DNA of 41,726 bases from Thermodesulfobacteriota bacterium (GCA_040880385.1 JBBDIN010000047.1:1-41726), one strand, 5' to 3'. Positions 17,475 through 19,202 are shown, counted from the first letter of the stretch. Notes: generated by a model from the sequence alone, not told the origin. Numbers and translations are program-made.

Positions 17475-18479
17475 ATGATTAGCGTTCAAACATTAGATGA
17501 ATTTATAATTAGAAGACAAACAGACTTCCCCTACGCAACAGGTGAATTATCCAGACTTCTTCGAAATATTGCTCTGGCCGCAAAGATCGTAAATAGAGAA
17601 GTAAATAAAGCGGGTTTAGTAGATGTACTAGGCGCAACCGTATATACAAACGTTCAGGGTGAAGAAGTAAAAAAACTGGATTTACTCGCAAACAAAACCT
17701 TTATAGCCTCACTTGAGCTGGGCGGTCAGTGCTGTGGTGTGGCTTCAGAAGAGAATGAAGAATTCGTTGCATTTGAGGCTGAATCTTCTAGAGAAGGTAA
17801 ATATATAGTCGCTATAGATCCTCTTGATGGATCCTCAAATATTGATGTAAATGTCTCAGTTGGAACTATTTTTACTATATACAGAAGAATATCACCAATA
17901 GGGGGTCCTAGCACAGCTGAAGATTTTCTCCAAAAGGGCAGTGAGCAAGCCGGCGCAGGGTATGTTATTTACGGATCATCAACTATGCTGGTTTATACAA
18001 CCGGTCATGGGGTTAACGGTTTTACGCTTGACCCATCAATTGGAGAATTTTGTTTATCTCACCCTGGTATGACTACACCTAAGAATGGTAAAACCTATTC
18101 CGTTAATACCGGGAATTTCTACAACTTCCCACAAGGTGTAAGAGAATATATCCATTATTGTAAGGAAGTAGGGAAAAATTCTGATTCTCCCTACTCTGCC
18201 CGTTATATAGGTTCAATGGTTGCCGATATTCATAGGAATTTATTAACAGGTGGAATATACATATATCCATCCTTGGATGGTTACCCGGATGGAAAATTAA
18301 GACTTGTTTATGAATGTAACCCAATGGCATTTATTGTAGAGCAGGCAGGCGGCACGGCAACTGATGGCTCCAGACGCATTTTAGATATCCAACCAACTGA
18401 GCTGCATCAAAGAACACCGATCTTTATAGGTTCAAGTGAAATGGTATCAAAAGCTAAAGAATTATTAGAAAGCAACTAG
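17475..18479 (+). CDS. fbp: fructose-1,6-bisphosphatase class I
   Basis: 334-aa ORF with the metal-site block [21 protein letters not shown], plus YGSSTMLV and [12 protein letters not shown]. Confidence 0.93.
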
Positions 18480-18625
18480 TTATGTTATTTTTAAGACGCG
18501 TCAAATATTCATATACTATCTAAGCGGCTTTTTATAAACCAAGAAAGCGTGAGTCTACCGTAAACACCCCTAATCCTTACAATATTTGCCAATTTGCAAT
18601 TTAGTTTTTTGTATAGAATTCTCTC

Positions 18626-18653
18626 TTGACATTTTGATGTCAGAATGTAACTT
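18626..18653 (+). promoter_or_regulatory. sigma70-like promoter candidate (TTGACA-16 nt-TAACTT)
   Basis: A perfect -35 lies at 18626-18631 and a TAnnnT -10 at 18648-18653, about 30 nt upstream of the small acidic ORF start. Confidence 0.4.
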
Positions 18654-18684
18654 TTCAATAAATCATTAGTACAGGAGAAAGCAA

Positions 18685-18852
18685 ATGAGTACCGACCTCG
18701 CACTACTTTTTAAAGATGAAGAATGGGATGATGACGACGAAGATGAAGATGAAGACTTAGATGACGATGATTTCTTTGATGATGACGATGACTGGGATGA
18801 TGACGATGAAGATTGGGACGACGATGAAGAAGAGGAGAAAACACTCAATTAA
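18685..18852 (+). CDS. 55-aa hyper-acidic small protein (36 of 55 residues Asp/Glu, interspersed Trp/Phe), function unknown
   Basis: An ATG at 18685 sits 6 nt after the AGGAGA RBS (18673-18678), with a promoter-like element upstream. The translation is MSTDLALLFKDEEWDDDDEDEDEDLDDDDFFDDDDDWDDDDEDWDDDEEEEKTLN. It falls below the ORF-track length cutoff, and the track instead shows the antisense poly-Ser ORF. Confidence 0.55.
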   Translation: MSTDLALLFKDEEWDDDDEDEDEDLDDDDFFDDDDDWDDDDEDWDDDEEEEKTLN

Positions 18853-19000: not shown

Positions 19001-19087
19001 TGGTGCCCGGGGCCGGACTCGAACCGGCACAAGTTTGCACTCGAGGGATTTTAAGTCCCTTGCGTCTACCAATTCCGCCACCCGGGC
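19001..19087 (-). tRNA. tRNA-Leu (anticodon UAA), CCA encoded
   Basis: The reverse complement GCCCGGGTGGCGGAATTGGTAGACGCAAGGGACTTAAAATCCCT...GCCGGTTCGAGTCCGGCCCCGGGCACCA folds by hand into a cloverleaf. It has a 7-bp acceptor stem, an AGGGA/TCCCT anticodon stem, a CTTAAAA loop, a long variable arm and a GTTCGAGTC T-loop. Confidence 0.95.
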
Positions 19088-19127: not shown

Positions 19128-19202
19128 TGGAGGCGGCGCCCGGATTCGAACCGGGGCATTGCGGTTTTGCAGACCGCTGCCTTACCGCTTGGCTACGCCG
19201 CC
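19128..19202 (-). tRNA. tRNA-Cys (anticodon GCA), CCA encoded
   Basis: The reverse complement is GGCGGCGTAGCCAAGCGGTAAGGCAGCGGTCTGCAAAACCGCAATGCCCCGGTTCGAATCCGGGCGCCGCCTCCA. All four stems pair, and the anticodon loop is CTGCAAA. Confidence 0.95.

Follow-up and report, generated by a model that had tools for sequence, protein, structure and literature searches.

The plus strand at positions 18685-18852 of a 41,726-nucleotide contig from a Thermodesulfobacteriota bacterium (GCA_040880385.1 JBBDIN010000047.1:1-41726, the whole of which is referred to here as the window) very probably holds a genuine coding gene, judging by its conservation in relatives, and its predicted product is an extremely acidic protein of 55 residues. 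Our explanation as a whole, to which we give a probability of about 0.45, is that this gene is autonomously transcribed and encodes a disordered polyanion that binds basic or nucleic-acid-binding proteins. The lineage-restricted family to which the protein belongs is new, acidic disordered microproteins as a general kind being already known, and it is unusual for its extreme charge, for the regular spacing of its Trp residues and for a promoter that is better conserved than the coding sequence.

Read directly from the sequence, the open reading frame (ORF) begins with an ATG at 18685, ends with a TAA stop at 18850-18852 and translates as MSTDLALLFKDEEWDDDDEDEDEDLDDDDFFDDDDDWDDDDEDWDDDEEEEKTLN; the features of the locus are outlined in table 1. 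Asp (26 residues) and Glu (10 residues) together account for 36 of the 55 positions, approximately 65%, and with two Lys and no Arg the protein carries a net charge of -34. The feature goes well past what chance would produce. The ORF has the highest acidity of any in its own 2.08-Mb MAG (80% complete): its best 30-residue stretch contains 25 Asp or Glu, versus 17 of 30 in the runner-up, an ORF with a GrpE-like look. An initial, sequence-only reading of the window had described this 55-residue ORF with its 36 acidic residues, punctuated by W14, L25, F30, F31, W37 and W44, behind a TTGACA-16-TAACTT promoter, an AGGAGA and a further 6 nt before the ATG, and all of these elements are found in the sequence at the positions claimed.

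Table 1. Features of the acidic-protein locus and its surroundings, in window coordinates.
Feature	Position	Strand	Remarks
fbp (class I fructose-1,6-bisphosphatase)	17475..18479	+	upstream neighbour
Promoter block CTTGACATTTTGATGTCAGAATGTAACTTTTCA	18625..18657	+	conserved across homologous loci
5′ leader, short, with Shine-Dalgarno AGGAGA	18658..18684	+	AGGAGA at 18673-18678, 6 nt from ATG
Acidic-protein coding sequence	18685..18852	+	55 codons, net charge -34, frame open in every homologue
N-terminal motif MSTDLALLFKDEEW	18685..18726	+	family consensus M-x-x-E-L-E-L-L-x-K-D-[DE]-[DE]-W
Acidic core D11-E51	18715..18837	+	hydrophobic/aromatic anchors W14, L25, F30-F31, W37, W44
C-terminal motif EEEEKTLN	18826..18849	+	family f1 consensus EEEK-x-[IL]-N, then stop
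Antisense 60-aa poly-Ser ORF	18666..18848	-	TTG start; mirror of GAN codons, not gene
tRNA-Leu(taa)	19001-19087	-	ARAGORN and Rfam; convergent with ORF
tRNA-Cys(gca)	19128-19202	-	ARAGORN and Rfam; convergent with ORF

The ORF is preceded by a promoter of its own, in which a -35 element (TTGACA, 18626-18631) is separated by a 16-nt spacer from a -10-like TAACTT (18648-18653) with a TG before it. Alignment of 25 distinct loci yields a block of approximately 45 nt with the consensus cTTGAC.TTT..a.g.CAg..TGTA.c.TTTCA.atAaatca, followed by aGGaGa and the ATG, and the remaining intergenic DNA around this block is unalignable and unconserved. Within the leader, ATAAATCA and the aGGaGa are conserved among homologous loci. 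A degenerate pattern describing the promoter block has one match per genome in 38 of the 120 genomes of a GTDB phylum-level set, comprising 28/32 genomes of the window's family and 9/15 of one sister family, and the same pattern reversed as a control has no match in these 120 genomes. The block occurs once only in the window's own genome.

The build CTTGACA-N13-ATGTAA is common to the acidic-ORF promoter and to the promoter of a 5S rRNA gene on contig C10, and for this reason a strong housekeeping-type promoter is inferred for the acidic ORF. The 5S gene in question stands alone (G000 contig C10:7348-7464, minus strand, Rfam 92.9 bits), and the segment that includes it together with about 40 nt upstream (L107 1349-1504) carries CTTGACA-N13-ATGTAAAT directly before the gene. 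The recurrence of the build suggests that it is the strong promoter type of these bacteria and that this 5S rRNA is transcribed on its own. Taken together, the consensus -35, the strong Shine-Dalgarno sequence and the 5S-like build suggest high expression of the acidic ORF. A simple promoter scan of the window does not list the acidic-ORF promoter because its -10 matches too few consensus positions, which is a limit of the scan and not counter-evidence. A palindrome, TGACA-N6-TGTCA, lies over the -35 (18627-18642) and was considered as an operator, and was rejected, since the right arm, and with it the perfect symmetry, is kept in only part of the genus. Elsewhere, in the other genera and in the sister family, this arm reads GGCAG, GCCAG, AGTCA, ACCAG or ACTAG, though the bases are constrained.

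When related genomes were searched in six frames, the ORF turned up in members of the window's genus and family. A profile made from the first matches recovered it in 27 of 32 family genomes in addition to the window's own; one further genome (G002) was picked up by single-sequence search, the complete genome G015 contains a diverged 71-aa copy with the same promoter in front, and in the three remaining genomes the contigs end inside fbp, leaving the ORF site unassembled. The cassette of promoter, Shine-Dalgarno sequence and ORF is present in 30 of the 30 assessable genomes of the window's GTDB family. The sequence-only reading had pointed to the fbp/tRNA-Leu locus of relatives as the place where homologues should be found and had held that absence of the ORF from close relatives would speak against the gene; it is conserved there in every assessable genome of the family. 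In a sister family, 9 of 15 genomes have the promoter block, the Shine-Dalgarno sequence and an ATG opening an ORF of 46-58 aa, and these nine ORFs are 62-73% Asp/Glu with periodic Trp. The same cassette is found in 39 related genomes and 13 metagenome contigs, with the Shine-Dalgarno sequence and ATG retained in 13/13 of the contigs and 9/9 of the sister-family loci. Among 72 genomes of the other seven families, small-genome lineages included, neither the profile nor the promoter pattern has a match, and viral contigs contain no match to the motif. When the N-terminal motif was searched as a DNA pattern through 596 Gb of genomes representing 185,579 species, it gave 14 matches, all of them in MAGs (labelled Ca. 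Dadabacteria, Thermodesulfobacteriota, Deltaproteobacteria or similar) and all adjoining fbp. On this comparative evidence, the cassette is inherited vertically in two families of Ca. Dadabacteria. The family MAG contigs that end inside fbp, before the acidic ORF and tRNA region, are G009:C186, G047:C102 and G018:C181 (L073-L075); short-read assemblies may break here on the low-complexity GAN repeat or on the tRNA genes, which would help to hide the gene.

A default ORF list (at least 60 aa) shows only an antisense poly-Ser ORF at the acidic locus. The plus-strand GAN codons and the minus-strand TCN codons share their wobble base, so that a synonymous-site test of the plus frame versus the Ser frame is intrinsically weak within the acidic runs, and the frame was therefore judged from the non-acidic columns. 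Two adjacent Leu columns near the N-terminus (the second LL of ELELL) have Leu in 21 of 23 sequences, encoded by 6 and 5 codons, respectively. Leu columns are conserved via three to six synonymous codons, with CTN/TTR changes among them, and these first-position C/T changes fall at second codon positions in the minus frame. A conserved Lys column uses both AAA and AAG, and the Trp at position 37 is invariant across the alignment. Computed for the first 14 codons in 21 sequences, pN/pS has its lowest value, 0.36, in the plus frame; it is 0.56 in the mirror minus frame and 1.2-1.9 in the remaining four. The sequence pairs behind these ratios are not independent, and no formal significance attaches to them. 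Of the third-position differences seen within the genus, 45% are Asp/Glu swaps, versus 66% transversions at fbp fourfold sites, a comparison that is biased by the plus-frame alignment and is given little weight. Judged by these patterns, selection acts on the plus-frame protein.

That there is no plus-strand protein gene, and that the locus is instead slippage-prone DNA, an antisense poly-Ser gene or an RNA such as a GGA-motif sponge, is hardly tenable. Most homologues do have an open antisense Ser frame, whose wobble positions are those of the plus frame; this openness is purely a consequence of composition. The antisense frame contains stops in three homologues, its TTG start has no Shine-Dalgarno sequence that we could see in the window, and TCN accounts for 94% of its Ser codons among the homologues versus 67% of those genome-wide, mirroring the GAN codons of the other strand, whereas the start, Shine-Dalgarno sequence, stop and non-acidic residues of the plus frame are all conserved with synonymous variation. 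Simple-sequence DNA would not behave as does the diverged copy in G015, which has fallen to 51% Asp/Glu yet retains its termini and anchors. GGA motifs do arise at UGG-GAU junctions, and the candidate of an RNA sponge for CsrA, with GGA at each UGG-GAN junction, was rejected because CsrA (PF02599) is absent from 33 of 33 family genomes, in a search in which positive controls responded; Rfam recognizes only the two tRNAs at the locus. The view first taken from the window, that annotation misses a real plus-strand protein gene and that the antisense frame is not the gene, agrees with the comparative evidence, and the contrast in selection between the strands to which it had looked falls on the plus side, both in the N-terminal pN/pS and in the synonymous variation of the non-acidic columns.

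Across the protein family the N-terminus M-x-x-ELELL-x-KD(D/E)(D/E)W is conserved, and in the window's family so is the EEEK-x-(I/L)-N C-terminus, which is not kept in the sister family; the final Asn is retained in 22 of 23 sequences, via both AAT and AAC. Between these termini the anchors of each protein, hydrophobic or aromatic and most often Trp, number from five to ten, and in 27 family members the spacing of anchors peaks at 6-8 residues (103 of 156 intervals) with net charges of -30 to -42. The length of the ORF ranges from 46 to 72 codons across homologues, and among about 40 sequences all insertions and deletions are multiples of three. Repeat-length variation between strains, predicted from the window's GAN repeat, is indeed seen and is always in-frame: near-identical metagenome strains differ by 39 nt between direct repeats or by two versus three copies of an 18-nt unit, and the window differs by 6 nt from a contig with 94.6% identical flanks. 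From these alignments, the acidic core tolerates in-frame expansion and contraction, and the termini and anchors are kept. A 37-aa protein from an ENA metagenome (P0001) is a short variant, MNTELELLFKDEEWDDDDDELDEDEELDDDEEEKTIN, that has both termini and is without the FF and the Trp core; it reflects either a tolerance of large in-frame deletions or a collapse during assembly. Codon 6 of the window's ORF (18700-18702) encodes Ala (GCA), a single A-to-C difference within the conserved ELELL from the Glu (GAA) found in nearly all relatives, including contigs with 94-95% identical flanks. The FF pair in an acidic tract brought to mind an FFAT-like motif, an idea that was set aside since, by eye, the pair occurs only in the window's genus and in G011.

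The family is essentially unannotated, as it matches no database family and only four unnamed predictions. A Pfam hmmscan of 16 members at E-values up to 10 returned no family, save for one chance match, and there was no match to the acidic protein in NCBIfam, none to the family in PHROGs and none to PDB sequences in a profile search at E-values up to 10. An HMM profile had 0 matches among 1.84 billion representative proteins, the single 55-aa sequence had 0 in a word-indexed search of 5.8 billion proteins, and an exact look-up of 20 sequence variants, from both strands, in a collection of 15 billion found all of them absent. A permissive profile search of the 5.8 billion proteins recovered four members, all unnamed or ‘hypothetical’, two of which have over-extended starts and one of which is a natural 37-aa deletion variant. 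AlphaFold2, given a 13-sequence alignment, predicts no secondary structure (pLDDT 62, pTM 0.12), which is weak evidence given how shallow and biased that alignment is; it is consistent with a disordered product, as the sequence-only reading had supposed.

The order cvpA-fbp-ORF is fixed in the window's family, with fbp on the same strand and adjoining the ORF in every locus. Upstream of the ORF the sister family has a ribBA-like, an aminopeptidase-like or some other gene, and fbp was not found in the fetched loci of about 3 kb (tblastn for L055 and L057; ORF lists). Given this result and the ORF's own promoter, the arrangement is best described as family-level synteny and not as an operon. A convergent tRNA-Leu(taa)/tRNA-Cys pair lies 3′ of the acidic ORF in loci of both families, and this arrangement is probably an ancestral one, not a mark of accessory DNA having been inserted. 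The position beside a tRNA gene had been taken as a hint of accessory DNA at an integration hotspot; vertical inheritance, stable synteny, the presence of the tRNA pair in both families and the absence of any match in viral contigs tell against it, and no mobile-element signature was seen at the locus. A phage or mobile origin was rejected on the same stable synteny and on 0 motif matches in viral contigs. One contig resembling genus g6 (L108 4386-6203, ENA contig ERZ25070167:ctg392531) has three small genes after the acidic ORF instead of the tRNA pair, two of them with IPTL-CTERM sorting signals. In another locus (L002, G005:C121) the fbp match at 282-1282 is split between two frames (residues 1-267 in one, 267-334 in the other), pointing to a frameshift or to faulty assembly of this MAG.

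Extreme negative charge, disorder and regular aromatic anchors together form the signature of fold-free binders of basic, often nucleic-acid-binding, surfaces. The polyanion proposed here would most probably also work without folding: its charge and aromatic anchors would grip the basic surfaces of nucleoid proteins, RNA polymerase or ribosomal proteins, and it would act as a competitor or chaperone in the manner of prothymosin-alpha, of DSS1 or of the Bacillus RNA polymerase delta subunit with its acidic C-terminal region. Taken as a separate claim, this mechanism of binding by charge and aromatic anchors is tentative and on balance doubtful. The gene neighbours differ between the families and thus indicate no partner. 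A bacterial histone was considered and rejected, there being no histone-fold match above the cut-off in the genome, and a small hyper-basic partner was rejected too, the only candidate being a spurious 45-aa ORF on contig C48 that is read out of frame inside a 356-aa open frame (stop to stop) with a Gln/Lys/Glu-rich stretch. The ribosome itself may also have shaped the chain. Acidic nascent chains near the N-terminus destabilize ribosomes in a Mg2+-dependent manner, which is offset by bulky residues close to the peptidyl-transferase centre (bioRxiv 10.1101/2021.02.02.429294). In this way the conserved bulky N-terminus and the punctuation at about every seven residues may make the chain translatable. 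The bulky N-terminus and periodic bulky residues would then be needed for ribosomes to translate the acidic chain without aborting, and the aromatic anchors could serve translation instead of binding.

Among bacterial proteins the nearest analogue is delta (RpoE) of Bacillus and other Firmicutes, through its acidic C-terminal region; among eukaryotic proteins, prothymosin-alpha and DSS1 come nearest. The delta C-terminal region is regarded as a nucleic-acid mimic that assists in detaching RNA polymerase from nucleic acids, and hydrophobic residues are dispersed among its Asp and Glu. It is disordered, with a net charge of -47 over 83 residues (PMC7749165), and the family protein would be a disordered polyanion of similar size and charge density (-34 over 55 residues). 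Unlike delta, which has a folded N-terminal HARE-HTH domain that docks on RNA polymerase, the 55-aa protein is free-standing with an N-terminal motif of about 10 residues; it comes from an unrelated phylum, shares no sequence similarity with delta and, together with 15 homologues, has no match to HARE-HTH (PF05066). The only PF05066 match in the genome is a C-terminal HARE-HTH (27.7 bits) in a 345-aa protein (G000 contig C155:8322-9359; L109 835-1872), whose N-terminal part looks like a sigma-70 region-4 module; this protein is not delta. Prothymosin-alpha, a histone H1 chaperone, and DSS1/Sem1 are small, acidic, disordered proteins that bind basic or DNA-binding partners, and DSS1 anchors itself through conserved Trp and other aromatic residues within its acidic stretches and, towards RPA, behaves as a DNA mimic. 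The family protein differs from both in being bacterial and in having no detectable homology to them, and it is much more acidic than DSS1; hmmscan with DSS1_SEM1 (PF05160) at E-values up to 10 found no match in 16 members.

Among bacterial and phage proteins, Ocr, ArdA, Neisseria DMP12 and DMP19 and T7 Gp5.9 resemble the family in being small and strongly acidic. These proteins compete with DNA for DNA-binding proteins, and they are folded, with carboxylates arranged like the DNA backbone. Unlike such folded mimics, the acidic ORF product has no AlphaFold2 fold and no match in PDB, PHROGs or Pfam, and its gene is chromosomal and vertically inherited, not carried on mobile elements. Intrinsic ribosome destabilization (IRD) sequences, such as that of the MgtL leader peptide, share with it an Asp/Glu-rich nascent chain near the N-terminus. 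The MgtL IRD aborts translation within the first six residues (MEPDPT) and upregulates mgtA in cis (bioRxiv 10.1101/2021.02.02.429294), whereas the acidic ORF has 46-72 codons, conserved termini and no downstream gene to control. The invariant C-terminal Asn led us to consider a modifier of the Pup/UBact type, which was rejected: there is no PafA/Dop (PF03136) in the window's 80%-complete genome, and in place of a conserved Gly-Gly-Gln/Glu the protein ends in K-x-[IL]-N in one family and variably in the sister family. Since membership tests for delta, prothymosin-alpha and DSS1 failed, the family is described as working like these proteins and not as a member of any of their groups.

Other functions for the gene must be weighed against this proposal. 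The roles that the sequence-only reading had suggested, a nucleic-acid mimic, a sponge for basic proteins or a cation buffer, are plausible candidates. A specific partner or regulator of fructose-1,6-bisphosphatase would account for the adjacency of fbp and the ORF on the same strand in 30/30 assessable family genomes and in the metagenome contigs that contain fbp, but the ORF has its own conserved promoter, the sister-family cassette sits after other genes with no fbp in the fetched loci, and fbp is present in other bacteria that lack the acidic ORF, which makes such a role highly improbable. Also very unlikely is an MgtL-type sensor ORF, in which the act of translation would report on ribosome or Mg2+ status and the peptide itself would be irrelevant. 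The acidic run begins at residue 11, in the region where the risk of destabilization is highest (bioRxiv 10.1101/2021.02.02.429294), and the leader is short and the promoter strongly conserved, as would suit a sensor; yet the genes that follow are convergent tRNAs or variable, with no co-directional downstream gene to be regulated, the C-terminal motif, the anchors throughout the chain and the position of the stop are conserved in the window's family, and 46-72 codons is far beyond what a sensor would need.

The remaining rival is a cation buffer, a soluble polycarboxylate for Mg2+, Ca2+, polyamines or metal ions, which we regard as unlikely, although several features of the protein fit it. 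It is the most acidic ORF product of its genome and packs 36 carboxylates into 55 residues, and Asp and Glu are partly interchangeable and the core variable in length, as expected if bulk charge is what counts. The Mg2+-dependent destabilization of ribosomes by acidic N-proximal chains (bioRxiv 10.1101/2021.02.02.429294) offers an extension of the idea, whereby synthesis might be self-limited: ribosomes would abort the Asp/Glu runs at low Mg2+, and the protein would be made only when cations are plentiful. Against the buffer stand the conserved Trp residues, the ELELL and the C-terminal motif, which ion binding would not need, the lack of a linked transporter or metal-homeostasis gene and the cost of stoichiometric buffering by a protein. 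A broader reading, which we think improbable, spans both the polyanionic binder and the buffer: the family would represent a hitherto unrecognized class of free-standing, abundant and disordered ‘Trp-punctuated poly-Asp/Glu’ microproteins with a global action, either as competitors, similar to the delta C-terminal region or prothymosin, that strip or chaperone nucleic-acid-binding proteins, or as self-limiting cation buffers whose synthesis is gated by the stability of ribosomes on acidic chains. In either version, if true, the bulky spacing of about seven residues would be an evolved solution to the problem of making a chain with a net charge of -34.

The acidic ORF illustrates how a conserved small gene can be almost wholly missed by gene prediction and protein databases, being represented by four unnamed predictions among billions of proteins and by no family, and it belongs to a candidate phylum without cultured members. 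For work on these uncultured bacteria, the unique promoter block is useful as a marker and is a candidate for a strong promoter. If the gene is expressed as its promoter suggests, the product would be among the most acidic bacterial proteins known. It would then provide a test case for how ribosomes cope with extreme acidic nascent chains, and for whether bacteria, as eukaryotes do, manage nucleic-acid-binding proteins or cations with free-standing disordered polyanions.
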